Origin: a virus | Lineage: Duplodnaviria > Heunggongvirae > Uroviricota > Caudoviricetes | Reading direction: 5' to 3' (one strand) | DNA: 64,000 nucleotides | Virus record (IMG/VR): IMGVR_UViG_2728369130_000006 | Span: 43,200 to 107,199 of that record | Shown here: in pieces, positions 3,312 through 58,140 of the stretch | Numbering within the stretch: position 1 is the stretch's first letter | How the letters are laid out: every line of letters starts with the position of its first letter | Notes under the pieces: model-generated | Database searches by the model: none | Seen by the model: only the letters and a program-made list of their open reading frames with translations | Told to the model about the DNA's origin: nothing | Translations under genes and position numbers: made by a program

Positions 3312-3342
3312 CACAAAACGAAAATAACATTGAAAAGGATTG

Positions 3343-4623
3343 ATGAGAATGAAAACAACTAGCCCCTCATGGAGCATTAAAGACTTATTCAGGATGGCAG
3401 AAAGTGGAGAGTTGAATTTTAACTATCCAATTCAAAGACCAAGTGGTCAATGGGATGAACTACAAAAATCGTTATATATTCATACAGCGGCATCTGGATG
3501 GGCGATGCCACCTATCTTAGTTTTTAAGGCAGATAAATATGAATATGTATTAGACGGTAAACAGCGTAGCACTAACCTTATAAATTTCGTTAGAGGTGTA
3601 AGAGACCCTGAAACAGGAGTATATCCTGACAAGGCATACCCCTTACATGTAGAAACTCCAGACCTTTTTATACAAGGAATGAAAGGTAAGATTGAAAAGG
3701 TTAAGATAGCAGGTAAATATTTTGATGAATTGCCTCAAGATATACAAGCTGAAATCATGACCACTAATATTCCAGTCCAAAGAATTGAAGATGCTACTGA
3801 CGAAGAGATTGAGGAGCTATTCTTTAGATGGAATAATGGTACACCATTGACAAAACAGCAAAAATCACGTGCGAAAATGGGAACAAAAAATGCAATTATG
3901 ATCGAAGAATTGTTGAAACATCCATTTATGAAGGAGGTTGCACAGTTTACTCCATTGCAACGTAGAAGAAGTGATGATGAAGCAGTTATTCTACAGGCAA
4001 TCATGCTGATGAAGGATAAAGATCAAATTGAAAGCTTTGTCGCGGATAAAATTTTGAATTTCGCCACGGATATGAGAAATACTGATTTAACATCAATCGT
4101 GAAAGAGTTTAAAGATATTCTTAATTATGCTTATTCTGCAAACATCTCAAGCCCATTGTTCAAAAAGCTTCAATTGCCAACGGTCTTCATGGTAGCAAAA
4201 AAAGCTAAGGATAAAAAATTATCTCCTGAAATCTTTGGTAAATGGGTTGAAGATTTCAACTTCGCACTTGGTAAAAGGTCGAAAGAAAAGGCTCTTGTTA
4301 AAGTCGAAGACGACTATAAAGAGAAGTATCAAGGAGCGGGTAGTGTAAAACGGAATAAAATACTTGGTCGCTTGAATGCAATGATGGCGCATTTTGATGA
4401 GTTTGTTGCCTTGCAAGAGAAATTAGAAGAAAAACCAAAAGAAGAGCCGAAAAAAGAACAAAAGAAAGAAGAAAACGTTAAAAAAGATCAGAAGTCTAAA
4501 GATAAAGAAGTAAAAGCTAAGACGGAGAAAAAAGAGGAAGAGCCAAAGAAAGAGAAGAAAGATAAAAGCGGTGATTTGAAAGATATTGTCGCAGAACCAA
4601 AACATGTGACAACAAAATCTTAA
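3343..4623 (+). CDS. DUF262 (ParB/Srx-like nuclease/NTPase domain) protein with a Lys/Glu-rich C-terminal tail
   Basis: N-terminal DGKQRST motif and surrounding pattern typical of DUF262 (GmrSD N-domain). No DUF1524/HNH partner. Tail KEEPKKEQKKEENVKKDQKSKDKE. Confidence 0.5.
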   Translation: MRMKTTSPSWSIKDLFRMAESGELNFNYPIQRPSGQWDELQKSLYIHTAASGWAMPPILVFKADKYEYVLDGKQRSTNLINFVRGVRDPETGVYPDKAYPLHVETPDLFIQGMKGKIEKVKIAGKYFDELPQDIQAEIMTTNIPVQRIEDATDEEIEELFFRWNNGTPLTKQQKSRAKMGTKNAIMIEELLKHPFMKEVAQFTPLQRRRSDDEAVILQAIMLMKDKDQIESFVADKILNFATDMRNTDLTSIVKEFKDILNYAYSANISSPLFKKLQLPTVFMVAKKAKDKKLSPEIFGKWVEDFNFALGKRSKEKALVKVEDDYKEKYQGAGSVKRNKILGRLNAMMAHFDEFVALQEKLEEKPKEEPKKEQKKEENVKKDQKSKDKEVKAKTEKKEEEPKKEKKDKSGDLKDIVAEPKHVTTKS

Positions 4624-4650
4624 CGCAGGGATATTTCCTGCGTTTTTCTT
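4623..4650 (+). terminator. rho-independent terminator
   Basis: acgcagg-gatattt-cctgcgt followed by ttttctt. Confidence 0.5.
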
Positions 4651-4728
4651 ATTATTTATTTAAAAGTTTGTCATTATCAAATATAATAGAAGAGTGTTTA
4701 TGTAAAGTAAATATCAAGGAGTTTTAAT

Positions 4729-5091
4729 ATGATTTTAAATGAAAGGTTGAAGATATTAAGAGATCAACATAGTCCTAAGTTATCTCAGAAGGCTCTCTGT
4801 AAAAAAATAGGTTTAAATCGCTCAACATATGCAAGATATGAGACTGGCGCTAATGAACCAGATTGTCGGACATTAATTAAAATCGCCGACTTCTTCAATG
4901 TTACAGTAGACTATTTATTAGGTCGCTCCAATGAAAAGTGGATACTAAATGAAGAGTTTAACGATGAAAATTTAGAGAGTGCCTTAAGAGGAGCTTTACA
5001 CTTATCAGATGAATCAAAACAACAGATTATTGATTTCATAAATTTTCTTAAAGAAAAGGAGAATAAAAAATTGTCAAAAGAGGAGTTTTAA
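4729..5091 (+). CDS. XRE-family HTH transcriptional regulator
   Basis: LSQKALCKKIGLNRSTYARYETGANEPDCRTLIKIADFFNVTVDYLLG is a classic Cro/CI-type HTH. Confidence 0.6.
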   Translation: MILNERLKILRDQHSPKLSQKALCKKIGLNRSTYARYETGANEPDCRTLIKIADFFNVTVDYLLGRSNEKWILNEEFNDENLESALRGALHLSDESKQQIIDFINFLKEKENKKLSKEEF

Positions 5092-5774: not shown

Positions 5775-5803
5775 TTGACAAAGGATTGTATTGATGGTAT
5801 AAT
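5775..5803 (+). promoter_or_regulatory. sigma-A-like promoter (TTGACA-17-TG-n-TATAAT), second copy of the TTTTTGAAATC upstream class
   Basis: Read directly from the sequence. Confidence 0.5.
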
Positions 5804-6352: not shown

Positions 6353-6467
6353 GTCAATTGGAGCGATAAAAATTATACAGTTTATACTTGTTATTTGGTT
6401 AATACAAACGATCTTGTTAGGACTATACACATTAATTAATTATATGAAGAGCTAAAAGATTGGAGAG

Positions 6468-7193
6468 ATGTTAATGGATAAGTTCGGAGACAGAATGAAA
6501 GGGTATGAAAATACTTATCGAATGAAGTTACCAAAACGAATGCCAATTATCATTAGAATAGATGGGAAATCGTTTCATACATACACAAGAGGATTGGAGA
6601 AACCATTTGATCGGTATTTGACGTATGCGATGTGGGAAACGTGCAAATATCTTGCACAAAATATTATGGGTTGTAAATTAGCCTATACGCAGTCAGATGA
6701 GATTAGTTTACTTCTTACCAACTACGATAAACTAACAACAGAGTCGTGGTTTGATAACAATCTTCAAAAGATAGTTTCGGTCTCTGCTTCACTTGCTACG
6801 GCAAAATTTAATGAGATTATGCGTGAGGAATACCCAGAAAAACAGTTCGCCTTGTTTGATGCTAGAGCGTGGGTGTTACCTAAAGATGAAGTGTGTAATT
6901 ATTTTTTGTGGAGGCAACAGGATGCAACGAAAAATAGCATTTCAATGGTTGCACAAGCAAACTTTCCACATAATCAACTTCAAGGTTTAAATGGCGATCA
7001 GATGCAAGATAAGTTATTCTTAGAGAAGGGTATTAATTGGAATGACATTCCCACGTGGCAAAAACGCGGAGCTTGTATTAAAAAGATTTATTTTGAAAAG
7101 AACGGAGCTATAAGAAACGTGTGGGATGTAGACCTTGAAACACCTATTTTTTCACAGGATAGAGAATATGTTGAACAATATGTGTATTTATAA
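6468..7193 (+). CDS. Thg1-like protein (tRNA-His guanylyltransferase family, 3'-5' nucleotidyltransferase)
   Basis: IRIDGKSFHTYT, KPFD and AYTQSDEISLL correspond to the Thg1 signature RLDGRNFH, KPND and AYGQSDEYSFV. Confidence 0.6.
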   Translation: MLMDKFGDRMKGYENTYRMKLPKRMPIIIRIDGKSFHTYTRGLEKPFDRYLTYAMWETCKYLAQNIMGCKLAYTQSDEISLLLTNYDKLTTESWFDNNLQKIVSVSASLATAKFNEIMREEYPEKQFALFDARAWVLPKDEVCNYFLWRQQDATKNSISMVAQANFPHNQLQGLNGDQMQDKLFLEKGINWNDIPTWQKRGACIKKIYFEKNGAIRNVWDVDLETPIFSQDREYVEQYVYL

Positions 7194-7219
7194 AACGCTA
7201 GTCTTGAGGAGGATTTTAA

Positions 7220-7414
7220 ATGTCTGTAAGAAAACATGGAAGAAAAAGAGTAAGATGTAACGGTAAAGTGTGGGGCAATACTCAAGTGTTCGAATACCGA
7301 TCTCCTTCGATTACGTTGGATTGTGAAAAGCTAACAGATGAAGAATTTAAAAAATTAAGTGGTGAAGTAAAGACTTATAACATAAAAGACTTAAAAGACA
7401 AAAATAAAAATTGA
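7220..7414 (+). CDS. hypothetical small protein
   Basis: RBS GAGGAGGA. Confidence 0.4.
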   Translation: MSVRKHGRKRVRCNGKVWGNTQVFEYRSPSITLDCEKLTDEEFKKLSGEVKTYNIKDLKDKNKN

Positions 7415-7450
7415 ACAGATAAAATCTTAATTTTATACAGGGGCGATAAA

Positions 7451-7660
7451 ATGGCTGTAGATATATTTAAAGAGACTATGAACAATCAACAATTGATTGA
7501 AGTATATGAAGAAATTGGTGATAAATGCTTAGGAAACAAAGAATATAAATTAACAGAGTTTGAACTATGTATAATGTCCGCAATTTCGAAAAGAAAACTT
7601 ACACATCGAACAAAATTCAAATATGGCTCACCTTCAAGGTATAATGAAGGCAGATATTGA
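7451..7660 (+). CDS. hypothetical small protein
   Basis: Conserved TTTTATACAGGGG junction upstream. Confidence 0.4.
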   Translation: MAVDIFKETMNNQQLIEVYEEIGDKCLGNKEYKLTEFELCIMSAISKRKLTHRTKFKYGSPSRYNEGRY

Positions 7661-7691
7661 TAAAGGTTTAATCTTATACTGAGGTGATTGA

Positions 7692-7895
7692 ATGAGTAGT
7701 GTAGCTAGAGAGATGATTGAAGATCATGAAAGAATGGCTAGAAGGGTTCAGAATTTCATATGGGAAGGCAAACCATTTAAAAGCAAGAAGATAGAGCATA
7801 CAGTCGAAGAGTTTGAAGATTTTCTAGAAGGTCTTAGAAAAGATTGTTGGGATAGTTATGATACAGGTGCTTGTGAAATGGGATGGAGAAAATAA
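7692..7895 (+). CDS. hypothetical small protein
   Basis: RBS GAGGTGA. Confidence 0.4.
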   Translation: MSSVAREMIEDHERMARRVQNFIWEGKPFKSKKIEHTVEEFEDFLEGLRKDCWDSYDTGACEMGWRK

Positions 7896-8443: not shown

Positions 8444-8713
8444 ATGCCTATAAAAGCAGAAGAAGTTGTTGTATCATTAAACAGTCTAATGGAATCTAGA
8501 GGGAGTATCGTCAGGTTTAAAACAGACCGAGGGAGAGCATACCTTCCTTCGATCGAGATTGTGATATATGATGATTATATTGACAGCTTTATTATCAATA
8601 TGGACGATAAGTTCTACAATGAATTGGCAAATCATTTAAAAGCCAAATTTAAAATCTTTAACATTAGTTTCAACAATACACGCTCATGCTTCTGGCATCA
8701 AGATATTGTCTAA
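8444..8713 (+). CDS. hypothetical protein
   Basis: RBS AAAGGAGG before the ATG at 8444. Confidence 0.4.
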   Translation: MPIKAEEVVVSLNSLMESRGSIVRFKTDRGRAYLPSIEIVIYDDYIDSFIINMDDKFYNELANHLKAKFKIFNISFNNTRSCFWHQDIV

Positions 8714-8743
8714 AAAGTTTAAATAAACACGAGGTGGAAGAAA

Positions 8744-9618
8744 TGCTTGAAGATAATTATATATTAGGATTACTGTATGGAGATGGTTATTTTCAGCAGA
8801 AAAATAGATATGAATGGTTTTTGTTTTCTACTACACATAAAGAATTGTCTGATAAAGTTATAAGTTATTTAGATAAAAACAATATTAAATACTTTAATCA
8901 TAGAAGACATTTTCCTAAAGGACATAAAAAAGAAAATTATGAAATTCTTGAATTAATTGAGATTACTGATGAAAAATTCAGAGAGTATCTATTATGTCAA
9001 GGCTTCAATTCAGACAATGCAAGTGAAAGAATTAAATGGAACAGGGATTTTATTAGGGGAATAATTGAGACGAAAGGTTCTCTATTCACTTACCAACATA
9101 GGAACAGTATTGCTTGGCGCATATCTATTAGTGGTAATGAAGATGATGTTAAATATATCAAGCATATGTTGGAAACAGAATTGAATGTTTCAGTAGGCGA
9201 TGTATCCAGAAGAAGAGATAGAGAAAGCAAAGGAATCATTAGTGAATCATACAGACTCAATATTCAGAATAGAGCAGGTGTAAGAGAAGTAGTCAACTTT
9301 ATCAAGGGAGAAAATATATCTAAGTATCTAAATGAAATGATTGAGAAATTTGAGAAATTTGATTTGGAAACTCCATACAACATGAAAAGAAAAGTATTTA
9401 AACATTATAAATTCGCAGTTGGAGCGATGGCTAGAGATTTAGGCATTGTTATCAAAGGAAAGCGTGGAGGGGGAAGAAATTTCAAACCTATATACCTATG
9501 GGAAGGTGATACAGAAATAGCTTGTTTCTCTGGATGGGAAAATGCTTATAAGTGGACGTGTAAAATGTACGAAGAAGAGTTGTGTCGCATTCCGCCAGAA
9601 GTACACAGTGAAGATTGA
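8744..9618 (+). CDS. LAGLIDADG-family homing endonuclease (two-motif, free-standing)
   Basis: LGLLYGDGYF and FIRGIIETKGSL are LAGLIDADG motifs 1 and 2. RBS GAGGTGG before the ATG at 8744. Confidence 0.55.
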
Positions 9619-10700: not shown

Positions 10701-10883
10701 ATGACTTTTACATGTCATAAAACTTTAAATCTTCCTGAAAGAGAACAACAACACTGTGCGGGTGCTCTAATTTATTTAGAGAGAGAAGATAATCCTAATC
10801 AGATGATGAGAATCGCAGAACGATTAGAGCTTTATGATCGTAGAGAGTTGAATATGACCGCGGACATTATCGACAAAAAGTAA
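10701..10883 (+). CDS. hypothetical protein, possibly N-terminally truncated or frameshifted
   Basis: The frame is open upstream to 10593 and encodes CKDCPF without a canonical start. A TTG ORF at 10582 lies in the +1 frame. Confidence 0.3.
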   Translation: MTFTCHKTLNLPEREQQHCAGALIYLEREDNPNQMMRIAERLELYDRRELNMTADIIDKK

Positions 10884-10898
10884 ATTTTAAATATTCTG

Positions 10899-10927
10899 TT
10901 GACAAAAGATAATAAAATTGATATAAT
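10899..10927 (+). promoter_or_regulatory. sigma-A-like promoter TTGACA-17-TATAAT
   Basis: Read directly from the sequence. Confidence 0.45.
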
Positions 10928-23034: not shown

Positions 23035-23745
23035 ATGGCAAAGGAAGCAAGGGTTACTCAGTTAAAAAACGATTTGAAACAATTGAACTACAACAATGCC
23101 TTAAGAGCTTTGCATTGGATGATCGAGACAATGAATGCAAACAACAATTATATGAGGCATGATGGAAGCCATTATTATTATCATTTAGTTGATACAGCTC
23201 AGGATTTATTGAATCATGGGATCAGGAATGAATCAATTATTACAGCTTGTATACTTCATGATTCAATAGAAGATATTCCAGAGGTGGACTATTATTTAAT
23301 TGAGGATCAATATGGGAAAGATGTTGCTCATTTGGTTTTGAGTGTCACAAAACAAGATGATATTGATTATAAAATTGAAGAAAATTTAAAAGACTATTTA
23401 AATAATATTTTAATATGCTTGGGAGCTTGCCTAATAAAAGCGGCAGACAGAAAGCATAACTTTAGCACATTGAATGAATCAAATAGGAAACATGAAATGA
23501 AACAGGTGAAGGAAACAGAGGAATTTTATATTCCTTTCTTTAAGCAAGCTCGAAAGAAATATCCAGATTATTCTGCTTATTTTCATTCTGTGAAAACTTC
23601 GATCATGCCCCATTTATTGAGAATTAAGAAAGCTTATAAGGATGAGGCAAAACTAAAAGAGAAAATTAAAGAGCTTGAACACAAACTAGATCAAGAGAGA
23701 ATGAAAAGAAAGGCGTTAGAAAAGAAAGTTAAACGAGGTGAATAA
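23035..23745 (+). CDS. SpoT/RelA-type HD-domain hydrolase (small alarmone hydrolase-like) with a C-terminal coiled coil
   Basis: H..YYYHLVD, ILHDSIEDIPE and LIKAADRKHNFSTL match the (p)ppGpp hydrolase HD signature (LLHDVVEDT ... LADRLHNMRTL). Confidence 0.55.
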   Translation: MAKEARVTQLKNDLKQLNYNNALRALHWMIETMNANNNYMRHDGSHYYYHLVDTAQDLLNHGIRNESIITACILHDSIEDIPEVDYYLIEDQYGKDVAHLVLSVTKQDDIDYKIEENLKDYLNNILICLGACLIKAADRKHNFSTLNESNRKHEMKQVKETEEFYIPFFKQARKKYPDYSAYFHSVKTSIMPHLLRIKKAYKDEAKLKEKIKELEHKLDQERMKRKALEKKVKRGE

Positions 23746-25311: not shown

Positions 25312-25761
25312 ATGAGCGAAATTATTATCTATGCTGATGGCGGTTGTAGGAATAATGGTAAAGAGAATAATATTGGTGGTTGGGGAGCGGTGCTTCAATA
25401 TAACGGCCATGTAAAAGAGCTTTACGCAGGAGAAAGAAATACTACCAATAATATTCAAGAATTAAAAGGAGCTATCAATGCACTAGAAGCACTTAAAACA
25501 ACAAATATTCCTGTTCGTTTACACATGGATTCTGCTTATGTGGTAAATGGAATAAATCAATGGGTTAAAGGTTGGAAGAAAAAAGGCTGGAAGAAAGGCG
25601 ATGGAAAAAATCCTGAAAACCTTGAGCTTTGGAAACATCTTGATAATCTTGTTTCAAAACAGGAAGATATTCAAGTATTAAAAGTAAAAGGACATGCAGG
25701 TGTTGATCTAAATGAAAGAGCAGATGAGTTGGCGAACTTAGCTATGGACGAGGTGGAGTAA
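25312..25761 (+). CDS. ribonuclease HI
   Basis: IYADGGCRNNG, ELKGAINALE, HMDSAYV and the ...ADELAN catalytic motifs. Confidence 0.65.
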   Translation: MSEIIIYADGGCRNNGKENNIGGWGAVLQYNGHVKELYAGERNTTNNIQELKGAINALEALKTTNIPVRLHMDSAYVVNGINQWVKGWKKKGWKKGDGKNPENLELWKHLDNLVSKQEDIQVLKVKGHAGVDLNERADELANLAMDEVE

Positions 25762-26216
25762 TGATTAAAATTATTCAAGGCGATTTGTTAGAAGCAAAAG
25801 AAAATATTATTGCACATCAGGTAAATTGTAAAGGTGTCATGGGAAGTGGCGTAGCAAAGCAAATTAAGCAAAAATATAATAAAGCGTTTAATGATTATAA
25901 AAATTTAATTACTAGACGAGCCGTGGAAGAACTTTTAGGGAGCGTTCAATATGTGCCCATTGATGACAAGAAATACATTGCCAATTTATTTGGACAATAC
26001 AAATATGGATATGATGGAATCCAATATACAAATATAGAAGCATTATCAGATTGCTTATTTGATTTGAGAAAAGAAGCAGAAAAACATGAGCTATCGGTTG
26101 CTATGCCTTATATGATCGGTTGCGACCGTGGCGGAGCGGACTGGAGAGAAGTTGAAGGACTAATCATTGATGCATTTGAAGGATATGAAGTAACTTTATA
26201 TAAATTGAAAAGGTGA
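25761..26216 (+). CDS. macro-domain protein (ADP-ribose binding/processing)
   Basis: IIQGDLLEAKENIIAHQVNCKGVMGSGVAKQI follows the macro-domain N-terminal pattern. Confidence 0.5.
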   Translation: MIKIIQGDLLEAKENIIAHQVNCKGVMGSGVAKQIKQKYNKAFNDYKNLITRRAVEELLGSVQYVPIDDKKYIANLFGQYKYGYDGIQYTNIEALSDCLFDLRKEAEKHELSVAMPYMIGCDRGGADWREVEGLIIDAFEGYEVTLYKLKR

Positions 26217-26225
26217 AGATGATTT

Positions 26226-26897
26226 ATGGGGAAAGAAACTGTTTATCGAGGTATGAAGCCTTTTTTGCAACTTGCAAATATTAAATTAGACCTTGAAAAA
26301 GCAAAGAAAGATTTTATAAACCTTCTTCCTCCAGAATATCAGGAGGAGTTTAAAAACAAATCATATTTGGCTGGTGGAGCTATCTACAGTTTATACAATA
26401 ATCAAATACCAAAGGATTATGATTTCTTTTTAACAGATGAATCACTCGTAAAAGAATTACGGAGATTCTTTGATAATGGAACACTTAAATATAAAAATGG
26501 TGTCAAAATCGGAAAGTATAAGGGTGAGACTCTTGTATACACTGACAATGCAATATCAATTGGAATGTACCAGATAATTACTAAATGGGTGGGCAAACCA
26601 GAGGATGTAATTGGAGAATTTGACTTTAAACATAATATGTATTACTACATAAATGGAGAGATTGAGACGTTAGTTGGCTGGGAGTATTTAAATGACAATA
26701 AGCTTAAATACAATGAAAAGAGAGCTAGAGATATTTGCGGAACAATTATTAGAATAAAGAAATTTGTTGAGCGCGGATTTACCGTTACTAATCATGAAGT
26801 AGCGAAGATGCTTTTAAAATTACATGAAGTTGGCTTTAATGAAGGAGAGTTAGAAATTTTACATATAAACGATGAAAGAAACGATTTTGGCAGTTGA
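26226..26897 (+). CDS. putative Pol-beta-superfamily nucleotidyltransferase (CCA-enzyme-like head motif)
   Basis: LAGGAIYSLYNNQIPKDYDFFLT versus GGAVRD.LLG..PKDIDIAT. Confidence 0.3.
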   Translation: MGKETVYRGMKPFLQLANIKLDLEKAKKDFINLLPPEYQEEFKNKSYLAGGAIYSLYNNQIPKDYDFFLTDESLVKELRRFFDNGTLKYKNGVKIGKYKGETLVYTDNAISIGMYQIITKWVGKPEDVIGEFDFKHNMYYYINGEIETLVGWEYLNDNKLKYNEKRARDICGTIIRIKKFVERGFTVTNHEVAKMLLKLHEVGFNEGELEILHINDERNDFGS

Positions 26898-34758: not shown

Positions 34759-35100
34759 ATGGATGAACTTGTTCAATATTATATTGTAAACAAAGAACTT
34801 AATATGTCAAAAGGAAAAATGTCTGCACAAGTTGCACATGGCGCAACTATTTCCGCTGTGATGCTGAGTGAGCAAGAGACATTTCAGAAATGGTATGAGA
34901 AGGATCAAAAAAAGATCATACTTCAAGGGAAAGAAAAAGACTTACATAAAATTTTATCGAATGTCACTTACAGCTTTATGGTTACTGATAATGGCTTAAC
35001 AGAGATACCAAAAGGATCAAAGACTGTTGTTGTCTTACCGCCTATGAAAAAATCAGAGGCGCAAAGATATGTGAAGAGATTACAGTTATTCAAAGGTTAG
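34759..35100 (+). CDS. PTH2-family peptidyl-tRNA hydrolase
   Basis: YIVNKELNMSKGKMSAQVAHGA, KIILQGKEKDL, DNGLTEIPKGSKTVVVLPP match PTH2 (VVRTDL.MGKGKIAAQ.SHA ... DAG.T.I..GS.TVL.IGP). Confidence 0.55.
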   Translation: MDELVQYYIVNKELNMSKGKMSAQVAHGATISAVMLSEQETFQKWYEKDQKKIILQGKEKDLHKILSNVTYSFMVTDNGLTEIPKGSKTVVVLPPMKKSEAQRYVKRLQLFKG

Positions 35101-35111
35101 GAGAGAAATAG

Positions 35112-35447
35112 ATGTCGAAATTTGAATTTGACGTGGAAAGAAAAGGTTTAATTAGCGATGGATATCATACTTTTGATGAATTATATTATCATCGAATGAT
35201 CTTATTTTCTGTCATTTGTAATACATACAAAGATAAAGCATGGAAGTCTTGGAAACATGATGATGGAACAATGTTTGATGACTACTTCATTGTTGGGATT
35301 GAGACTACTCACGGCCACTATACTTATCACTATCACAAAGATTATTGGGAATTGTTTGATGTTAAAAAATTAGAATTTGCTCCAAAATGGGATGGGCATA
35401 AATCAGAAGATATTGATAGATTGTTCAGCTTAATTGGCAATAGCTAA
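35112..35447 (+). CDS. hypothetical protein
   Basis: RBS GGAGAGAAA. Confidence 0.4.
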   Translation: MSKFEFDVERKGLISDGYHTFDELYYHRMILFSVICNTYKDKAWKSWKHDDGTMFDDYFIVGIETTHGHYTYHYHKDYWELFDVKKLEFAPKWDGHKSEDIDRLFSLIGNS

Positions 35448-39708: not shown

Positions 39709-40290
39709 ATGAGAGTAGATATTATGGTAGACATTGAATCACTTGGTAAAAAGATCGATTCAACAATCATTCAAATTGCCGCAATATCTTTCGATATTAA
39801 CACAGGTAAATACATATCAAGTTTTAATCAGGTTGTTGATTTGGGAAGAAATTCTGAACAACCAAATCTGGACGCGGACACAATTAAATGGTGGATTGAA
39901 ACAGATGTCAAACTCTTTGCAGAGCTTATTAGCAATGGAACTGTGTCTTCATCTGAGTTGTTTAATAATTTTTATAAATGGATTGTAGATCAGGGAGAAA
40001 AGAAAAGCATTTATCTATGGGGAAATGGGATTCTTTTTGATAATAAGATGATACAGTATCAACTTGAAAATCATCACAATCTTCCATACCCTATATTTTA
40101 TAAAAATGATAGAGACGTTAGAACAATCCTAGAATTGGCAAGTAAAAAGAGCGGGGTTAACGAAAGAGAGATAAAAGAAAGAGTAAAACATTTTATGATT
40201 GATGAAAATTTAGTTGAGCATAATGCATTGGATGATGTTAAATATCAAATCAGATTAGTCACGGAATGTTATAGAACTTTAATTTCTTAA
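39709..40290 (+). CDS. DEDDh-family 3'-5' exonuclease (DnaQ/oligoribonuclease-like)
   Basis: VDIESLG (Exo I) and VEHNALDDV (Exo III, H-x4-D). Confidence 0.5.
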   Translation: MRVDIMVDIESLGKKIDSTIIQIAAISFDINTGKYISSFNQVVDLGRNSEQPNLDADTIKWWIETDVKLFAELISNGTVSSSELFNNFYKWIVDQGEKKSIYLWGNGILFDNKMIQYQLENHHNLPYPIFYKNDRDVRTILELASKKSGVNEREIKERVKHFMIDENLVEHNALDDVKYQIRLVTECYRTLIS

Positions 40291-40478: not shown

Positions 40479-41201
40479 ATGACTACAGATAGAGAAATTG
40501 TCTTAAAAGCGTTGGTGGGGAGTCATAATTATAATTTAGCAACAGAAGAGTCTGATAAGGATTATAAAGTATTTGTCGCTCCAACTTTTGAAGACTTATA
40601 TATGGGAAAAGAATATTCAAAATCAGTAATTACTGATTCGGAAGACAATGATTTTCATGATATCAGAAAGCTGTCAAAGTTGCTTTTTAAATCAAATATC
40701 AACTTCCTTGAGGTATTGGCCTCGACAGAAATCGAAGTAGCGAACAACCCTGAAATTGAAGAAATCTATTCAATGAGGGAGGACATTTTTCGAATGAATC
40801 TGCCGTATTTATATAATGCTTGCGGCGGAATGCATAAGAACAAAATGAGTCTTTTACATAAAGGAACAGAAGGAACTCAACATTTAGTTGATAAGTTTGG
40901 ATATGACACCAAACAAGCTCAGCACGCTTATAGATGCTTAAAGGTAATTGTAGATTACGCAGAGAATAAATTTGAAGACTTTGAAGCGGTTATTAAATAC
41001 TCTGGAGAAGATAAAGAATTTATGATGGATATTAGGAATGGAGTTTTTGAAAGAGAGGTTTTTGAAAACTTTATTAAACATTATCATGATTCTATGTTTT
41101 CTCATCTCAAAGAGGTGTATCACTCACATGAACCCAACTTAGAATTAAAGTCAAAAATTGATAAGTTAATCATGCAGTTAGTAAAAAGAAAACTAAAATA
41201 A
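40479..41201 (+). CDS. Pol-beta-superfamily nucleotidyltransferase (pfam10127/RlaP-like)
   Basis: LVGSHNYNLATEESDKDYKVFV fits the hG[GS]x9-13Dh[DE]h motif. Confidence 0.45.
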   Translation: MTTDREIVLKALVGSHNYNLATEESDKDYKVFVAPTFEDLYMGKEYSKSVITDSEDNDFHDIRKLSKLLFKSNINFLEVLASTEIEVANNPEIEEIYSMREDIFRMNLPYLYNACGGMHKNKMSLLHKGTEGTQHLVDKFGYDTKQAQHAYRCLKVIVDYAENKFEDFEAVIKYSGEDKEFMMDIRNGVFEREVFENFIKHYHDSMFSHLKEVYHSHEPNLELKSKIDKLIMQLVKRKLK

Positions 41202-47189: not shown

Positions 47190-47578
47190 TGTTGTTAGTT
47201 TTTGTTTCACTAACAGGCAATGTTAGAAACTTTGTTGGCAGGGTTGGAATGGATAGTCTTGAATTAGATTATTCCAACCCTTTAACAGAGGTTGATGAAG
47301 ATTATATTGTGGTAACTCCCTCATATGATGATGATTTGACAGATGTTATAAGTGAATTTATCGAATACAAAGATAACTTAAAACACTTGGTTGGGTTTGT
47401 TGGCAGTGGAAATAGGAATTTTGATGATGAGTATTGTTTTAATGCTAGAGACCTTTCAAATAAATACAATAAACCATTGATATTCAAGTTTGAATTTAGT
47501 GGTACAGAAAAAGATATAACTGATTTTAAAAAGGAAGTGCATAAATTTGGAGTCACCGAAATTAACAAAGAAAGTTAA
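47189..47578 (+). CDS. nrdI: NrdI flavodoxin-like protein
   Basis: [15 protein letters not shown]-terminal motif, 129 aa, synteny with nrdE. Confidence 0.55.
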
Positions 47579-48704
47579 AGATGATAGTTATTTTACTTTG
47601 AATAACTTATTAAACATCCCTAAAGATGGAAAGATTCAACTTGAGAAAGATAGAGAGGCCGCAAGAGCATACTTTCTAGAGCATGTAAATCCAAATACAG
47701 TGTTTTTTCATACCCTTGATGAAAAGCTTGATTACTTAGTTGAAAATAAATACATAAAAGATGACATTTTGAACAAGTATAGCAGAAAGTTTATTAAACG
47801 GTTATTTAAAAAATTGTATAATCACAAATTTAGATTCCGTAGCTTTATGGGAGCTTATAAATTTTATCAGCAATATGCAATGAAAACCAATGATAAAGAA
47901 AGATTCTTAGAAAGATTTGAAGACAGAATTGCTTTCACTGCATTAGCAATAGCTAACGGTGATGAACATTTTGCAATGGACTTGGCAGATGAAATGATTA
48001 ATCAGCGATATCAACCTGCAACACCTACATTTTTAAACATTGGTAAAGAGAGAGCGGGAGAAATGGTTTCTTGCTTCTTGCTAACTTTGTCAGATGATAT
48101 GAACAGTATTGGTCGGTCAATTAATTCAGCTTTACAACTGTCTAAACGAGGTGGAGGAGTTGGAATAAATCTATCCAACATCAGGGCAAATAATGATCCG
48201 ATTAAAGGGATTTATGGATTGGCCGATGGAGTAGTTCCTATCATGAAACTATTTGAAGATGCTTTTTCTTATGCAAATCAAGGTGGGGCAAGAGATGGAG
48301 CTGGTGTAGTCTATCTCAATATCTTCCATCCAGATGTTGTAGATTTCTTAGCAGTTCGGAAAGAAAATGCCGATGAGAAAGTTCGAATTAAAACGCTATC
48401 GCTCGGCTTGGTTGTTCCAGACAAATATTATGAACTTATCAAAAAAAATGAATATATGTATCTCTTTTCTCCACATGATGTAGAAAAAGCTTATGGCGTT
48501 CCATTCTCTTATGTTGATATCACGAAAGAGTATGAGAACATGGTCAACAACCCTGAAATTAGAAAAACTAAAATCAAGGCGCGTGAGCTTGAAACAGAGA
48601 TTAGCAACTTACAGAATGAGAGTGGATACCCATACATAATCAATATTGATACGGCTAATAATGCGAATCCTATTAACGGAAAGATTATTATGTCTAACTT
48701 GTGT
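47547..48704 (+). CDS. nrdE: ribonucleotide reductase class Ib large subunit NrdE, exon 1 (ends ...IIMSNLC)
   Basis: N-terminus matches NrdE ([21 protein letters not shown]). The frame hits TAA immediately after the conserved SNLC. The remainder of the protein resumes at 49769. Confidence 0.65.
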
Positions 48705-49768
48705 TAAACGTAGCACCTTCATACAGCAATGTATGTCGAAAACCTTGTTAAAACGGTGGAAGTCTTACTGAGATAATACCGTAGGAAGCATTAATCACAA
48801 TCAGCAGATGCCTTTAATAATTAGAGATTATTGGAGGAATCAATATAGAAGATAAATATTTTGGATTTATTTATGAGACTACCAATCTAATCAATTGAAT
48901 TAAATACATTGGAAAATGCATATTTAAGCGTCAAAATAATTGGAAGACTTATTTAGGCTCTGGAACGTATTTGAAAAGAGCAATAAAAAAATATGGAAAA
49001 GAAAATTTTAAGCGAGAAATATTATTTTTAGCATTGGATAATGAAGAGTTAAATGAATTAGAAGAATTTATCATAAAGATAAGTGATGCAGTTGAGTCTT
49101 CAAACTATTATAATTTAAAAATCACTTCTATTGGTGGAGATGTTTTTACCTACAACCCACGAAAAGAAGAAATAAGAGAGATACGAAGACAGCAATTTTC
49201 AGGAGAGGGTAATTATTGGTATGGAAGAGAAAAGCCCTCTTACATCATTCAATCTATTAAAGAGGCAAATTCAAAAAAGATAATTGCTGACGGAGTTTTA
49301 TATGACAGTATTACTGAGTGTGCAAAATTAACTGGATTAAAGATATCGACAATACATGCACGGTTAAACAGTGATACGAATGATAAATTTTTCTATGCAG
49401 ATAAGTATGGCAATACAATTCCTAAAAGACTAAGAAACAAAAAAATCAATTCAAGTAAAAGCCTGTAAAAATAAAAATTGAAGGGAAAATATTCAATTCT
49501 AAAAAAGAAGCTCGAAAAGAATTGCATATTGGTCAGGCAACTCTTGAAAAAATGATTAGTGAAGGTAGATGCAAAATTGTGGATTAATGAACCTCTAACG
49601 ACTATCGAAACCACGCAAAAGCGGAAGGGAGTAGAGTACACCACAAGCGATTGGTGGTGGAAAAGCAAGGAATCCTACAGGGATTATGATATAGTCTGCT
49701 CTGCATGGCGACATGTAGCTGTGGTTTGCCCACGCCTTAGACGTAGCGAATCTAGGGGAACATATAGG
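48705..49768 (+). other. group I intron in nrdE (about 1064 nt) carrying a degenerate homing-endonuclease ORF
   Basis: Exon 1 ends on U after SNLC. The downstream frame restores the conserved ...TEIFQ... (NLCxEI). The 3' roughly 200 nt (49560-49768) are GC-richer, look structured and end in G. Confidence 0.55.
48845..49468 (+). pseudogene. decayed GIY-YIG homing endonuclease gene (I-TevI-like) inside the intron
   Basis: KYFGFIYETTNLIN then a frameshift into IKYIGK...GSGTYLKRAIKKYG (GIY-YIG motifs). The ORF has no ATG. The C-terminal HTH repeat GVLYDSITECAKLTGLKISTIHARL is followed, after a stop, by a second repeat KIFNSKKEARKELHIGQATLEKMIS. Confidence 0.5.
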
Positions 49769-50797
49769 ACAGAAATCTTTCAAATTATGAAAGATTCAAT
49801 CATTAGAGACGATCAAACATATGAGATTCTAGGAAGTGACATTAGTTGCAATTTAGGATCAACCAATGTTGTAAAGCTCATGGAGTCACCGAACTTTGGG
49901 AAATCGGTTAGGACAATGCTACGTGCACTAACTTACGTTACTGATAATTCAAATATCGATTCTGTACCAACAGTGAAAAATGGGAATGACAGATATCATT
50001 CTGTTGGTCTTGGAGCTATGAATCTTCATGGTTATCTAGCAAAAAATCATATTGAATATGGCTCTCCAGAAGCTTTAGAGTTTACAGACATTTATTTTAT
50101 GCTATTAAACTTTTGGACTCTTGCTGAAAGTAATGATATTGCTCGAGAAAGAGGAGAGACATTTTTTGAATTTGAAAAATCAAAATATGCAGATGGAACT
50201 TATTTTGATATGTATTTAAATGCTCCTGATTTCGAATTTAAGCATGAAAAAGTTAAAAAACTATTTGAGGGAATCTTTATTCCTAAGCATCAAGATTGGA
50301 AAAGACTTAAAGAAAATATCATGAGATATGGACTTTATAATGCATATAGATTGGCAACTGCACCAACAGGCTCTATTTCATACATTAATGAAGCAACGGC
50401 CTCAATTCACCCGATTACTCAGCGAATTGAGGAGAGAACCGAAGGCAAGCGAGGTAAAGTATATTATCCAGTTCCATATCTTTCTGATGACACGATTCCT
50501 TATTATAAAACGGCCTATGATATTGATCAACGCAAGATTATTAATACATATGCAATAGCGCAAAAACATGTTGATCAAGGCATGAGCATGACTCTGTTCT
50601 TTAGAGAAGAGCTTCCAGAAGGTATGTATGAATGGAAGGCTGATAGCGAATACCCTACTAAAAAGACCACTCGTGATTTAAGCATTCTTAGAAACTATGC
50701 ATGGAAAAAAGGTATTAAATCAGTCTATTACATTAGAACATTCACTGATGATGGAGATATGATCGGAGCTAATGAATGTGAAAGTTGCTCAATTTAA
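49769..50797 (+). CDS. nrdE: NrdE exon 2 (C-terminal half, ending ...CESCSI)
   Basis: Conserved RNR large-subunit C-terminal region and redox-active C-terminal cysteines. Confidence 0.6.
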   Translation, partial: TEIFQIMKDSIIRDDQTYEILGSDISCNLGSTNVVKLMESPNFGKSVRTMLRALTYVTDNSNIDSVPTVKNGNDRYHSVGLGAMNLHGYLAKNHIEYGSPEALEFTDIYFMLLNFWTLAESNDIARERGETFFEFEKSKYADGTYFDMYLNAPDFEFKHEKVKKLFEGIFIPKHQDWKRLKENIMRYGLYNAYRLATAPTGSISYINEATASIHPITQRIEERTEGKRGKVYYPVPYLSDDTIPYYKTAYDIDQRKIINTYAIAQKHVDQGMSMTLFFREELPEGMYEWKADSEYPTKKTTRDLSILRNYAWKKGIKSVYYIRTFTDDGDMIGANECESCSI

Positions 50798-54258: not shown

Positions 54259-54858
54259 ATGGAAGATGAACAATATGAAACACGAGATACAATTGATGAG
54301 CCAATCATAAAAGTATATTCATATGGTTCTAGCGTTTATAATTCTCAAACTAAAAACTCAGACTCAGACTATATTGTCGTAGTGGATTCTGACGACAGGA
54401 ATCTGTATTACAGTGTGCGAGAAGAGGGAGCAGATTACACAGTTTATAGTGAAGGTAAATTTATTGAGAGGATTAAAGATCATCATATTAGTGTCATGGA
54501 GTGTATCTTTCAAAACCCAAATGATCCATACCTTAAATATTTTATGCTTGATAAAGAAAAACTTAGGCGTGAAATTTCTGCTGTATCATCTAATAGCTTT
54601 GTAAAATGCAAAAAGAAACTGGCTATTGGAGAGGACTATATTGGGAAAAAGAGCATGTTTCATTCATTAAGAATTTTGATGTTCGGTATTCAAATTGCAA
54701 AACATAGCAAAATCATTGACTATTCATGCGCCAATCATCTTTTGGACGAGATTTTAAAAATGAACTCTTGGGATGAAATTAGAGAGGTGTTTAAGCCTAT
54801 CTATAATAATTTAAAAACTGAATTTAGAGAGGTTGCACCGTTAGGAGATGATAAGTAA
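54259..54858 (+). CDS. Pol-beta-superfamily nucleotidyltransferase (pfam10127-like, paralog of the 40479 gene)
   Basis: KVYSYGSSVYNSQTKNSDSDYIVVVD. Confidence 0.45.
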   Translation: MEDEQYETRDTIDEPIIKVYSYGSSVYNSQTKNSDSDYIVVVDSDDRNLYYSVREEGADYTVYSEGKFIERIKDHHISVMECIFQNPNDPYLKYFMLDKEKLRREISAVSSNSFVKCKKKLAIGEDYIGKKSMFHSLRILMFGIQIAKHSKIIDYSCANHLLDEILKMNSWDEIREVFKPIYNNLKTEFREVAPLGDDK

Positions 54859-55132: not shown

Positions 55133-55946
55133 CAAAATTGAGGTGTTTGACTCTCCAAGAAGAGATGATGGCGAAATTGATTGGGGATTAAAAGCGATCA
55201 ATGCTCCTAACGTGTGGAGCAAAACAAAAGGAGAAGGTGTCCGTATACTTCTTATGGATACGGGAGTAGACACAGATCATCCTGAATTATCCCATGCATT
55301 TAAATCTGGTTATAACTTTTTTGAAAGAAGCCATAACGTTGAAGATGAGAAAGGGCATGGAAGTCATGTTGCTGGATTATTGGTAGGGAAAAATACTGGA
55401 GTTGCACCAGAAGCAGAACTGCATGTTATCAAAGTTTTAAACGATAACGGCAAGGGAAATATGGCAAGCGTAATGGATGGAATTACTTATGCAATTAACT
55501 ATGGCTTTGATGTCTTATGTATGTCTTTAGGGGTTGATAGAGAACTTCCCAATATTTTTAAAGAGAGGATCGAGAGAGCTTATAATGAAGGGATTGTCAT
55601 GGTTTGTGCAACTGGCAATGATGGGAACAACGAATCATTGTATCCTGCACGCTTGGACGAAGTGATAGCTGTTGGTGGTGTTGATAAAGATAAAAAAATT
55701 ACTCCATTTACTAATAGAGGATTCGATGTTCTTGCACCTTCAACTGAAATTCTAAGCTCTTATAAAGATGGGAAATATGCAAAAATGACTGGAACTTCAA
55801 TGGCGTCACCATTAGTTGCGGGAGCAATTGCATTATTAATCTCCCACTATAAAAATAACGGAAAGCAAATAGATATTAGAGAGATTAAGAAAAAGATGGA
55901 GAGTTTAAACAATAAGATTCTTGATTTAAATGAATTTATTACTTGA
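55107..55946 (+). CDS. subtilisin-like (S8) serine protease, no signal peptide
   Basis: Catalytic triad motifs LLMDTGVDTDH (D), HGSHVAGL (H), GTSMASPLVAG (S). TTG start after AAGGAG. Overlaps the upstream ORF by 26 nt. Confidence 0.55.
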   Translation: MKGKEIDLDKIEVFDSPRRDDGEIDWGLKAINAPNVWSKTKGEGVRILLMDTGVDTDHPELSHAFKSGYNFFERSHNVEDEKGHGSHVAGLLVGKNTGVAPEAELHVIKVLNDNGKGNMASVMDGITYAINYGFDVLCMSLGVDRELPNIFKERIERAYNEGIVMVCATGNDGNNESLYPARLDEVIAVGGVDKDKKITPFTNRGFDVLAPSTEILSSYKDGKYAKMTGTSMASPLVAGAIALLISHYKNNGKQIDIREIKKKMESLNNKILDLNEFIT

Positions 55947-57118
55947 TAAGTGAGCTGATAAGATTGGAATCATTAAAAGAAATCTTATATTCAAAGTTGC
56001 CAACAATGAAAAGTGAAGAATATAAAAAATACTTAGAAGAATCGGAGAACGGGTATATCAACATCAAGAGTCATCCAGAAGATGAGAACATAAAAATATT
56101 GTGTTATACAAAACTTACTGTATATGAGAAACGATGGAATCATGAGACTATGACCGCCAGAGGTTTAATTATTGACACAACAGAACTAAGTAATAATGGA
56201 TTAATATACATATTAGCAAAACCGTTTGATAAGTTCTTTAATTATGGTGAGAATCCAGAATATGAAAAAGACATTAACTTTTCAAAAATTGAATCTGTTA
56301 TGGAAAAAATCGATGGTTCATTAGGGATTTCCTACTTCTTTAACAATGAAATTCGATTTGCTACAAAAGGCAGTTTTACATCAGATCAGGCAATTAAAGC
56401 TACCGAAATGTGGAAAGAAAAATATTCACAAAATGAAGATATTGGTCACTATTGTCGAACGCCAGTAACTTATCTTGTCGAAATTATCTACCCAGAAAAT
56501 AGAGTGGTTGTTGATTATAAAGATAGTGAACACTTAGTGTTGCTTGGTGTTATATATCTCTTCGGCTCTATTCATGATGCTAATCGTGAAAATGTCGATT
56601 GGGAAGCTTACAGATTAAATATGTCTCTTGCTAAGCAATATAAATACAAATTTGAAGAGCTGATTCAAATGAAAGATATGCTGTCAGCTAATGAAGAAGG
56701 TTGGGTGATTAGATTTTCAAATGGTAAACGTTTGAAAATTAAAGGCAATGAATACTTACAGGTGCATAGATTAATGCATGGTCTGTCTACTAAGGCTAAA
56801 TATAAAGCTTGGGCAGAAAATAGAATTGATGAATACATATTGTCATTACCAGAAGAGTTCAGGCCAGAGATTGAGGGCTTTAAAAATAAGATCGATAGAA
56901 TTTTCGAAGCTCAATCAAAACTAATCCGAATGACCTTTAATCAAATTGCAAAAACCGACAAGAAAAAAGAGTTTGCTCTATTTGTAACAGAAAATATTCC
57001 ACCAGAGTTGCAAAAATATATGTTCGCAATGTATAACACAGGAAGATTCCCAGAACGAATGCTTAAAGAAGATATTTATAAAAACTATGGTGAATACGAA
57101 AAAGAGGAGATGTGCTAA
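55943..57118 (+). CDS. Rnl1-family ATP-dependent RNA ligase (T4 RnlA-like)
   Basis: Nucleotidyltransferase motif I EKIDGSL (KxDGSL). The upstream FDKFFNYGENP region resembles T4 Rnl1. TTG start overlaps the protease stop. Confidence 0.5.
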   Translation: MISELIRLESLKEILYSKLPTMKSEEYKKYLEESENGYINIKSHPEDENIKILCYTKLTVYEKRWNHETMTARGLIIDTTELSNNGLIYILAKPFDKFFNYGENPEYEKDINFSKIESVMEKIDGSLGISYFFNNEIRFATKGSFTSDQAIKATEMWKEKYSQNEDIGHYCRTPVTYLVEIIYPENRVVVDYKDSEHLVLLGVIYLFGSIHDANRENVDWEAYRLNMSLAKQYKYKFEELIQMKDMLSANEEGWVIRFSNGKRLKIKGNEYLQVHRLMHGLSTKAKYKAWAENRIDEYILSLPEEFRPEIEGFKNKIDRIFEAQSKLIRMTFNQIAKTDKKKEFALFVTENIPPELQKYMFAMYNTGRFPERMLKEDIYKNYGEYEKEEMC

Positions 57119-58140
57119 TGGAACAATTGAGATTTCTAATGCTAATTGGTTTGCCTGCAAGTGGAAAGTCCACATTTGCAAAAGAACTAATTGAAGGAGA
57201 AAACGGTGCTCAAAGAGATGACATTAAATATCTTTCATCAGATAAGATTCGAGAAGAATTATATGGGGATGAGAGTGTTCAGACTGACCCTTCAAAAGTT
57301 TTTGAACTAATGAGGACAAGAACATTAGACGCATTAAAAGAAGGTAAACACGTCATTTATGATGCTACTAATATTGGCCGAAAAAAGCGTAAAGGATTGC
57401 TTCAACAGCTTCCAAAAGGGGTGCATAAAACGGCAGTATACATGGCGACAGGCTATGGGACATGCATAGATATGAACACTCATCGTGAGAGAACTGTGCC
57501 AAAAATCGCAATAGACAATATGTATAAAAGTCTACAAATCCCTATTTATTCAGAAGGCTGGGACAATATTGTCTTCAACTATCCAGAAGGGCTAATTGAA
57601 GATGCGCTCCCTAAGCAATTTGTTGACGCGGTGAGAGCGGGAGTCTTGTTAAATAGAGAAGGATATAATCTTATGGATTTTCTTGCTTCATACTTTAGAG
57701 AGTTCTTTGCGATTCACGACTTTCCACAGGATTCGAAATATCATAGCTTTTCGACAAGTAGGCATACATATTACGTTTACAAACATGTTTTAGACAACTA
57801 TAAGACAGAAGATGAAACTGAGAAAGAATTGATGCTTTGGACTGCTCTTCTCCATGATATTGGGAAGCCATTCTGCAAGAGCTTTGCCAACAGAAAAGGT
57901 GAAGAGGTGAGATATGCCAACTTTATTGGACATGAATACGTTGGTTCACAATTAGCCGTACACCTTCTTAAACAAATGGGTTTTGACGATGGTTTTATAC
58001 ATACTGTTGTAACATTGATTCAATTTCATATGTATCTCTTAAATCAAGACGCTAATAAAGAAAAGCTTAAGAGATATGTGGGAGAGGATTTATTTAAGAA
58101 GTTAGAATTTCTAAGGGAAGCAGATACATTAGCACATTAA
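57118..58140 (+). CDS. polynucleotide kinase (P-loop) fused to an HD-domain phosphohydrolase (RNA end-healing enzyme)
   Basis: LIGLPASGKSTFAKEL (Walker A) plus the C-terminal H...HDIGKP...H...H HD signature. Adjacent to the RNA ligase. Confidence 0.5.
   Translation: MEQLRFLMLIGLPASGKSTFAKELIEGENGAQRDDIKYLSSDKIREELYGDESVQTDPSKVFELMRTRTLDALKEGKHVIYDATNIGRKKRKGLLQQLPKGVHKTAVYMATGYGTCIDMNTHRERTVPKIAIDNMYKSLQIPIYSEGWDNIVFNYPEGLIEDALPKQFVDAVRAGVLLNREGYNLMDFLASYFREFFAIHDFPQDSKYHSFSTSRHTYYVYKHVLDNYKTEDETEKELMLWTALLHDIGKPFCKSFANRKGEEVRYANFIGHEYVGSQLAVHLLKQMGFDDGFIHTVVTLIQFHMYLLNQDANKEKLKRYVGEDLFKKLEFLREADTLAH

Follow-up and report, generated by a model that had tools for sequence, protein, structure and literature searches.

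An intact bacterial-type Thg1-like protein in an SPbeta-like Bacillus prophage and its possible part in mending the 5′ ends of tRNAs

Main

The 64,000-nucleotide stretch of viral DNA analysed here (the window; positions 43,200 to 107,199 of IMG/VR record IMGVR_UViG_2728369130_000006) encodes what its sequence identifies as an intact Thg1-like 3′–5′ RNA polymerase (TLP), an ordinary member of a known family. Judged by its active site and its closest structural relative, the protein is a bacterial-type, repair-type TLP, despite the database name tRNA-His guanylyltransferase. We consider it reasonably likely that it acts during infection as a bacterial-type 3′–5′ RNA polymerase that repairs 5′-truncated tRNAs. 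Its closest solved relative, the ‘bacterial’ model enzyme BtTLP from Bacillus thuringiensis, is encoded on the jumbo prophage pBtic235 and is thus itself a phage enzyme, so that the role of bacterial TLPs is most naturally sought in phage infection.

Family membership and active site

The TLP reading frame is uninterrupted (6468–7193, plus strand; 241 amino acids as called mechanically) and contains all three strings, IRIDGKSFHTYT, KPFD and AYTQSDEISLL, that a sequence-only reading of the window had quoted as a Thg1/TLP signature. That assignment is borne out. The profile search that the reading had named as its test, against Pfam PF04446 (Thg1), gives a match at E = 4.6e-33 with 114.4 bits against a cut-off of 29.2 bits, covering the whole profile (positions 2–130 of 130), and PHROG 4717, ‘tRNA-His guanylyltransferase’, matches at E = 6e-117; a search of the protein against NCBIfam returned no match. 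The family counts 6080 cluster representatives at 50% identity (E ≤ 1e-3).

Among solved structures, the best match is BtTLP (4kgk/4kgm; E = 7e-126, 421.8 bits), followed at much weaker scores by the archaeal TLP of Methanosarcina acetivorans (MaTLP, 5axk; E = 5.4e-17, 65 bits) and by eukaryotic Thg1 structures (E = 1.8e-9 to 3.1e-12, 40–50 bits). In a global alignment, residues 1–239 of 4kgk chain A correspond without gaps to residues 3–241 of the query, and 179 of the 239 are identical (74.9%). The family-defining carboxylates are intact as D32, D77 and E78 (D30, D75 and E76 in BtTLP; D29, D76 and E77 in the human enzyme) and align with both BtTLP and the archaeal TLP, so the three catalytic residues on which the sequence-only reading had staked its assignment are all in place. 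Nine further BtTLP residues, E12, R28, T38, K43, L49, S74, R131, R147 and M158, are identical in the window protein, in which the conserved role residues are numbered E14, R30, K45, S76, R133, R149 and M160. All functional residues that we checked are therefore shared, and none of the 60 substitutions relative to BtTLP falls at a known functional site.

Conservation extends across viral relatives: E14, R30, D32, S76, D77, E78, R133 and R149 do not vary among the 60 unique viral homologues that we aligned. The ratio dN/dS is 0.028 against the gene of phage FADO and 0.046 against that of the closest metagenomic relative (L007), indicating strong purifying selection on the TLP gene.

Two observations place the protein with the TLPs and not with Thg1 proper: its far higher score to BtTLP and the missing Thg1 motif. 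Both the window protein and BtTLP read D-A-T-K-N-S-I where bona fide Thg1 has D-C-H-I-N-N-L-Y; in the alignment, DATKNSIS of the window protein stands against Candida DCHINNLY, and the HINNLYN motif is absent. Thg1 carries an asparagine at the position of yeast N161, and TLPs lack it (PMC6471195). The eukaryotic enzymes of yeast, human and Candida (3otb, 3wbz) share with the TLPs the palm fold, the two-metal carboxylates and the two-step chemistry of activation and transfer, but the sole substrate of Thg1 is tRNA-His, which it recognises by the anticodon and to which it adds G-1 without a template. MaTLP, although a distant sequence match to the window protein, has the same fold family, the same carboxylates (D32 corresponds to D21) and the S-D-E motif and, like BtTLP, carries out templated 5′-end repair in vitro. 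It has been described as a dimer on tRNA, and BtTLP as a tetramer.

Start codon and promoter

The true start of the gene is probably ATG 6474. A Shine–Dalgarno-like GGAGAG (6462–6467, plus strand; read from the sequence) has its GGAG core at 6462–6465, which abuts ATG 6468 and lies 8 nt upstream of ATG 6474; BtTLP, the FADO protein and other homologues begin MD(K/S)(F/I)GDRM, with a methionine equivalent to ATG 6474. Because both the spacing and the homologous N termini favour the second ATG, we assign the ribosome-binding site to it and annotate the TLP coding sequence, on the strength of the family matches and the BtTLP alignment, as 6474–7193 (plus strand; 239 amino acids plus stop), which would make the product the same length as BtTLP.

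A promoter scan found a sigma-A-type consensus promoter at 5775–5803 (plus strand; 12/12 matches), consisting of TTGACA, a 17-nt spacer and a TG-extended TATAAT, and no terminator-like sites were found between this promoter and position 9000, a span that includes the TLP gene. The gene has the same orientation as the surrounding small early-type ORFs, which run into replication genes. The promoter probably drives an operon of these small ORFs that would include the TLP gene, and it suggests that the gene is transcribed early, by the host RNA polymerase.

An SPbeta-like prophage and its relatives

Its chromosomal matches and phage marker genes identify the window as a temperate SPbeta-like prophage in the chromosome of Bacillus licheniformis, and no isolated lytic phage. 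First, the initial 16 kb of the window are ~96% identical to CP154901.1, a B. licheniformis chromosome, at ~2.62 Mb. Second, B. licheniformis contigs of 0.6–4.4 Mb carry annotated proteins that are 97–100% identical to the window TLP. Third, downstream of the TLP gene and less than 10 kb from it are homologues of MrpR, the SPbeta master repressor, and of YorF, and at the 3′ end of the window lies a large serine recombinase.

The window phage itself is absent from the phage collection that we searched. The nearest phage records, FADO, PK-3, PJN02 and 2S-4, match no more than 31% of its initial 24 kb, at ~83% identity, and the closest viral contig is IMGVR_UViG_3300019135_000009. FADO infects B. 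subtilis BEST7003. The FADO and PK-3 TLPs, 88% and ~80% identical to the window TLP, are encoded at the syntenic position; upstream of the gene, FADO carries Nampt and Prs, whereas the window carries peptidase, DUF262 and XRE genes. In PJN02, a deletion (corresponding to window positions 6676 to 7857) leaves an 88-amino-acid TLP remnant without D77 and E78, and in 2S-4 the gene is absent from the syntenic site, so that the TLP gene is dispensable in close relatives.

More widely, 164 records of the phage collection carry a TLP homologue, most of them annotated as tRNA-His guanylyltransferase, and a protein identical to the window TLP is annotated in NCBI under the same family name. The phage TLPs of PHROG 4717, among them those of FADO, PK-3, Bc431v3 (gp143), BCP78, Bcp1 and phage G, belong to this same family and mostly bear that name. 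Among the matches listed, homologues occur in large phage genomes only (≥100 kb), and two of the carriers, Bc431v3 and Bcp1, are strictly lytic Bacillus myoviruses.

In strains of B. thuringiensis sv. israelensis, a plasmid of 235,425 bp (NC_018509.1 and NZ_CP051859.1, among others) carries a gene 100% identical to BtTLP. This plasmid, pBtic235, has been described as a circular jumbo prophage that can be induced, forms plaques and has 17 tRNAs (PMC6199540, PMC9700832). A B. tropicus plasmid classed as viral in IMG/VR carries a 96% identical copy of BtTLP. The BtTLP gene and the window gene thus both sit among accessory genes of temperate Bacillus phage genomes, one in a 235-kb jumbo plasmid-prophage and the other in an integrated SPbeta-like prophage of B. 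licheniformis.

Predicted activity

BtTLP prefers 5′-truncated tRNAs 5–160-fold over full-length tRNA-His, adds all four nucleotides in a templated manner, accepts tRNA-Phe as well and adds G-1 opposite C73 with a kcat/KM of ~5500 M-1 s-1 (PMC3061083). It activates 5′-monophosphate ends with ATP or GTP (PMC6471195), and its D75A mutant has dramatically decreased activity (PMC3701042). Given 75% identity and an identical active site, BtTLP-like activity is to be expected of the window enzyme, which very probably performs the same templated 5′-end repair.

The gene is probably an accessory one, transcribed early by the host RNA polymerase. Its product would first activate the 5′-monophosphate end of an RNA with ATP or GTP, K45 being the predicted ATP-specific lysine. 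With two Mg2+ ions on D32 and D77, the 3′-OH of an incoming NTP would then be joined to the activated 5′ end, the choice of NTP being set by Watson–Crick pairing to the acceptor stem’s 3′ strand, and repeated cycles would refill the missing 5′ nucleotides on any tRNA. The enzyme could also place G-1 opposite C73 on tRNA-His, possibly restoring host tRNA-His. Such repair of 5′-truncated tRNAs would maintain a working supply of tRNAs in the infected cell, with the damage coming perhaps from a host or rival nuclease or perhaps from mis-processing of phage tRNAs; a kinase–phosphohydrolase protein encoded elsewhere in the genome (kinase-HD, below) could provide the 5′-phosphate ends. We infer the activity of the window TLP from that of BtTLP, and likewise its in vivo substrate, the timing of its expression and the source of the damage.

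RNA-repair genes and gene neighbourhoods

The sequence-only reading had set the TLP within an RNA-repair theme running through the window, and most of the genes that it named hold up. The window encodes a T4 Rnl1-type RNA ligase (55943–57118, plus strand; PF09511 RNA_lig_T4_1, E = 4.5e-20), the kinase-HD protein, which joins a P-loop polynucleotide-kinase-like domain to an HD phosphohydrolase (57112–58140, plus strand; AAA_33, 8.1e-19; HD, 4.9e-9), PTH2 (34759–35100; E = 2.5e-22), a DEDDh-type Rv2179c-like 3′–5′ exoribonuclease (39709–40290; E = 2.2e-42), an RlaP nucleotidyltransferase (40479–41201) and an NTP_transf_2 protein (54259–54858). The part that does not stand is the third of the three proposed Pol-beta nucleotidyltransferases (26226–26897), a candidate with no Pfam match and only a weak match to a PHROG nucleotidyltransferase (1.1e-6). 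The repair genes named in that reading lie 19–51 kb from the TLP gene and belong to no operon with it.

Another gene of the window recalls the published surroundings of Thg1. The Macro domain has been reported as a contextual partner in bacterial Thg1 operons (PMC2904730), and a Macro-domain protein is encoded 19 kb from the TLP gene (25761–26216, plus strand; Pfam Macro, E = 3.6e-9); going by the reported operon association, the two may be functionally linked. The window also encodes NADAR (17 kb from the TLP gene), SLOG/YpsA (54 kb) and an HD_4 hydrolase; on pBtic235, a SLOG/YpsA gene lies ~1.2 kb upstream of BtTLP.

We compared these arrangements with the neighbourhoods of viral TLP genes at 80 IMG/VR loci (38 lineages at 80% identity; 10-kb flanks). 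Within 10 kb, the recurrent neighbours are HD_4 (13 of 38 lineages), NAD-dependent DNA ligase (12), Nampt and PTH2 (10 each), and NADAR and Macro/SLOG (8 each). Rnl1 occurs in 2 of the 38 lineages and kinase-HD in none, counts on which we reject a tight phage operon of TLP with Rnl1 and PNK. The viral TLP is, by these counts, a companion of large-phage accessory, NAD and translation-rescue genes, with no healing-and-sealing operon.

Bacterial chromosomes show a closer association. At 10 loci in Paenibacillaceae and Thermoactinomycetaceae chromosomes, a gene for a P-loop AAA_33 kinase begins 17–24 nt after the TLP gene. This adjacency agrees with the Thg1–PNK association described by Anantharaman, Iyer and Aravind in 2010, in which the kinase makes the 5′-phosphate that Thg1 needs (PMC2904730). 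Within the window, the best match to the Paenibacillaceae TLP-following kinase is the N-terminal domain of the kinase-HD protein (28% identity, E = 5e-6). The Rnl1 and kinase-HD genes share a genome with the TLP gene at a distance of 49 kb, and FADO carries an equivalent pair. It is possible that the kinase-HD protein acts in trans as a partner that supplies 5′-phosphate ends to the TLP.

Is the TLP a counter-defence enzyme?

The sequence-only reading went further and took the gene as a hint that the phage anticipates host attack on tRNA 5′ ends or on the G-1 of tRNA-His. In the boldest version that we consider, large Bacillus phages would retain a TLP because hosts or competing elements make an undiscovered nuclease that trims the 5′ strand of tRNA acceptor stems or takes G-1 off tRNA-His, and the TLP and the kinase-HD protein would together be the dedicated antidote. 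If so, BtTLP, which has been studied for 15 years as an enzyme of ‘bacterial quality control’, would in truth serve phage counter-defence. We regard the antidote proposal as unlikely, and a counter-defence role for the TLP is one that we purely infer. The immune tRNases described in the papers that we consulted cut at the loop or stem of the anticodon, in the D-loop, on the acceptor stem’s 3′ strand (retron Eco2) or at the CCA tail (Cas12a3 and HEPN-MNT); we found none there that cuts that stem’s 5′ strand or removes G-1. The 49 kb between the TLP gene and the ligase–kinase module, and the dispensability of the gene seen in PJN02 and 2S-4, also count against a repair or counter-defence role.

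The nearest precedent differs in its chemistry. Phage T4 Pnk and Rnl1 repair the break that the PrrC anticodon nuclease makes in the anticodon loop of a host tRNA. As a phage system that mends damaged host tRNAs it resembles the one considered here, and homologues of both T4 enzymes are encoded in the window; the T4 enzymes, however, ligate a break made by a known nuclease, whereas the TLP would act by templated 3′–5′ polymerisation, for which no matching nuclease has been described.

Phage tRNAs as substrates

The damage might instead arise on the phage’s own tRNAs, with the TLP serving as quality control for 5′ ends mis-cut by RNase P or trimmed by exonucleases. The large genomes in which TLPs are found usually carry tRNA arrays, and two relevant ones do: FADO has 15 tRNA genes in its whole genome and pBtic235 has 17, the latter in a single array 13.5 kb from BtTLP. 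In some metagenomic phages the TLP gene lies inside or beside a tRNA array (L029, L051 and L081) or just after a single tRNA gene (L039–L041), and such arrangements are consistent, in general terms, with a tRNA substrate. In FADO, at least two tRNAs begin with U or C at position +1, which also fits a need for 5′-end quality control.

Several observations weigh on the other side. ARAGORN and Rfam found no tRNA genes in the 64-kb window, and at 68 of the 80 viral loci there is none within 10 kb of the TLP gene, as against 12 loci with a tRNA array in that range. In FADO, 13 of the 15 tRNAs have acceptor stems in which every position is paired (the remaining two were not parsed), the ‘8-bp stems’ reported by ARAGORN arise because a U at -1 pairs with the discriminator, and the tRNA genes do not overlap, being at least 1 nt apart. 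With stems paired and genes separate, no encoded need for repair is visible in the FADO tRNAs. The same data lead us to reject two specific sources of substrate, mitochondrion-like 5′ editing of phage tRNAs, since the 13 parsed acceptor stems are free of mismatches, and 5′-truncated products of overlapping tRNA genes. Overall we give quality control of the phage’s own tRNAs a low probability.

Other roles for the enzyme

Repair of 5′-truncated tRNAs during infection remains our preferred reading. A broader role, as a general modifier of RNA 5′ ends that caps non-tRNA RNAs by 5′-adenylylation or guanylylation or prepares them for ligation, strikes us as improbable. Its biochemical basis lies in BtTLP, which can use external templates and in whose reactions App- and Gpp-RNA intermediates build up (PMC6471195); ligation through a 5′-App end has been proposed (PMC2904730), and the window phage encodes an Rnl1 in the same genome. 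The TLP and ligase genes are nevertheless unlinked, and an Rfam search detected no RNA families near the TLP gene.

Less probable still, and in our estimate quite remote, is that the gene is expressed in the lysogen for the benefit of the host, whether in tRNA quality control or within a defence system. The consensus host-type promoter would suit such expression, related genes are chromosomal in Paenibacillus, and a DUF262/GmrSD_N protein that matches PADLOC NsnA is encoded 1.8 kb upstream of the TLP gene. Against this, the TLP gene is co-oriented among small early-type ORFs leading into replication genes, and the strictly lytic phages Bc431v3 and Bcp1 carry a TLP too. The TLP has no match among the PADLOC models, and we reject it as a component of a known defence system on that ground.

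Maturation of a phage-encoded tRNA-His by G-1 addition, the classical job of Thg1 and the one implied by the database name, is barely credible here: BtTLP equals yeast Thg1 in the efficiency with which it adds G-1 opposite C73, and in L051 the TLP gene is followed, 27 nt downstream, by a tRNA-His gene, but that tRNA-His already encodes its own G-1 opposite C73, as bacterial genes do, the window protein is of the TLP type without the Thg1-specific motif, and no tRNA-His lacking an encoded G-1 was found. We reject this role for the clade, as the window has no tRNA-His and neither the 15 tRNAs of FADO nor the 17 of pBtic235 include one.

Prior knowledge and significance

Both the window gene and the counter-defence hypothesis are already known. 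A phage Thg1 was noted in 2010 for phage 201phi2-1, with ‘RNA repair ... aimed against host defenses’ raised as an alternative (PMC2904730); Bc431v3 gp143 was highlighted as a Thg1 in 2013, Thg1 genes of B. megaterium phages were covered in 2018, and Iyer et al. in 2021 placed Thg1 among the RNA-repair counter-measures of jumbo phages. The sequence-only reading had supposed the countermeasure to be uncharacterised in phages. That stands for infection biology, since our literature searches for experiments on any phage TLP during infection found none, but not for the gene and the hypothesis, which were published in 2010 and 2021. Nor is it correct that no phage TLP has been characterised, because the biochemistry and structure of BtTLP in effect describe a phage enzyme of pBtic235. 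This origin seems under-appreciated: three papers on BtTLP and TLPs (PMC3701042, PMC6471195, PMC3061083) do not mention phage, the single ‘bacteriophage’ among them standing in a reference title.

The question of what TLPs are for, that is, the physiological role of the bacterial enzymes, may thus be addressed in phage infection and not in uninfected bacteria. Close homologues of BtTLP are present in genetically tractable SPbeta-like and Bastille-like Bacillus phages, and the natural truncation in PJN02 and the absence of the gene from 2S-4 provide useful comparisons for the role of the TLP.

TLP genes in prophages and related phages

The Bacillus thuringiensis TLP (BtTLP) serves as the model 'bacterial' TLP. 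Its gene is carried by pBtic235, an inducible 235-kb jumbo plasmid-prophage (locus L115, 20001-20738, corresponding to NC_018509.1 140973-141710), 13.5 kb upstream of a 17-tRNA array that contains no tRNA-His. This phage origin of BtTLP goes unmentioned in the TLP papers PMC3701042, PMC6471195 and PMC3061083.

Related phages also provide natural losses of the gene. In PJN02, a deletion corresponding to window positions 6676 to 7857 takes out the catalytic carboxylates D77 and E78 and leaves an 88-aa N-terminal remnant of the TLP (L091 3001-3267), and examination of the syntenic site in 2S-4 (L092) found the TLP gene to be missing. This natural variation among PJN02 and 2S-4 could serve in experiments.

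One database protein, P0001, matches the window TLP at 100% identity; it comes from a 617-kb contig and bears the label Clostridium sporogenes. Because the remaining near-identical copies all come from B. licheniformis, the assembly carrying P0001 is probably mislabelled or contaminated.

Genes neighbouring TLPs

Within 10 kb of viral TLPs, the commonest gene family is HD_4 (RelA/SpoT-type HD hydrolases), found in 13 of 38 viral lineages; the window member, at 23035-23745, corresponds to an annotated 'GTP pyrophosphokinase' in FADO. In FADO (L001 1412-3779) and PJN02 (L091 1-1212), an NAD salvage pair, Nampt and ribose-phosphate pyrophosphokinase, is encoded 2-5 kb upstream of the TLP. Nampt occurs within 10 kb of the TLP in 10 of the 38 lineages and is absent from the 64-kb window.

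tRNA genes also lie close to the TLPs of some metagenomic phages. In L051, a tRNA-His gene (10849-10925) that itself encodes G-1, C73 and CCA lies inside a tRNA array, 27 nt 3′ of the TLP gene. In L039 (8257-8350), and likewise in L040 and L041, a class-II-like tRNA of 94 nt, which matches Rfam tRNA at 44 bits, is encoded around 230 nt upstream of the TLP; for the L039 copy ARAGORN gives no anticodon assignment, reporting a 4-base 'acaa' and Cys or Leu.

A P-loop AAA_33 kinase of 150 aa is conserved beside the TLP in chromosomes of Paenibacillus, Baia and Shimazuella. Its gene begins 17-24 nt 3′ of the TLP (8741-9190 in L006; approximately 8731-9168 in L095-L099, L103, L104, L108 and L110), and in P. 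peoriae the next gene is an unannotated one of 276 aa. An association of Thg1 with PNK was already in print in 2010 (PMC2904730).

Other genes of the window

Window 3340-5091, which may hold a defence or restriction gene borne by the prophage, includes a 427-aa DUF262/GmrSD_N protein (PADLOC NsnA, E=1.8e-21), a strong terminator 3′ of its gene (4622-4644) and, past the terminator, an XRE-family HTH gene (4729-5091). At 34759-35447, PTH2 is encoded first and a WDGH-domain protein (PF25311, E=7e-45) directly 3′ of it. In the region 47547-50797, the alpha subunit of a class Ib ribonucleotide reductase apparently occupies two ORFs, 47547-48707 and 49559-50797, separated by a 165-aa ORF. The split looks like that of a putative intron or intein that carries a homing endonuclease gene, an interruption of the same kind as in SPbeta. 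A LAGLIDADG-like ORF is also present in the window, at 8686-9618.
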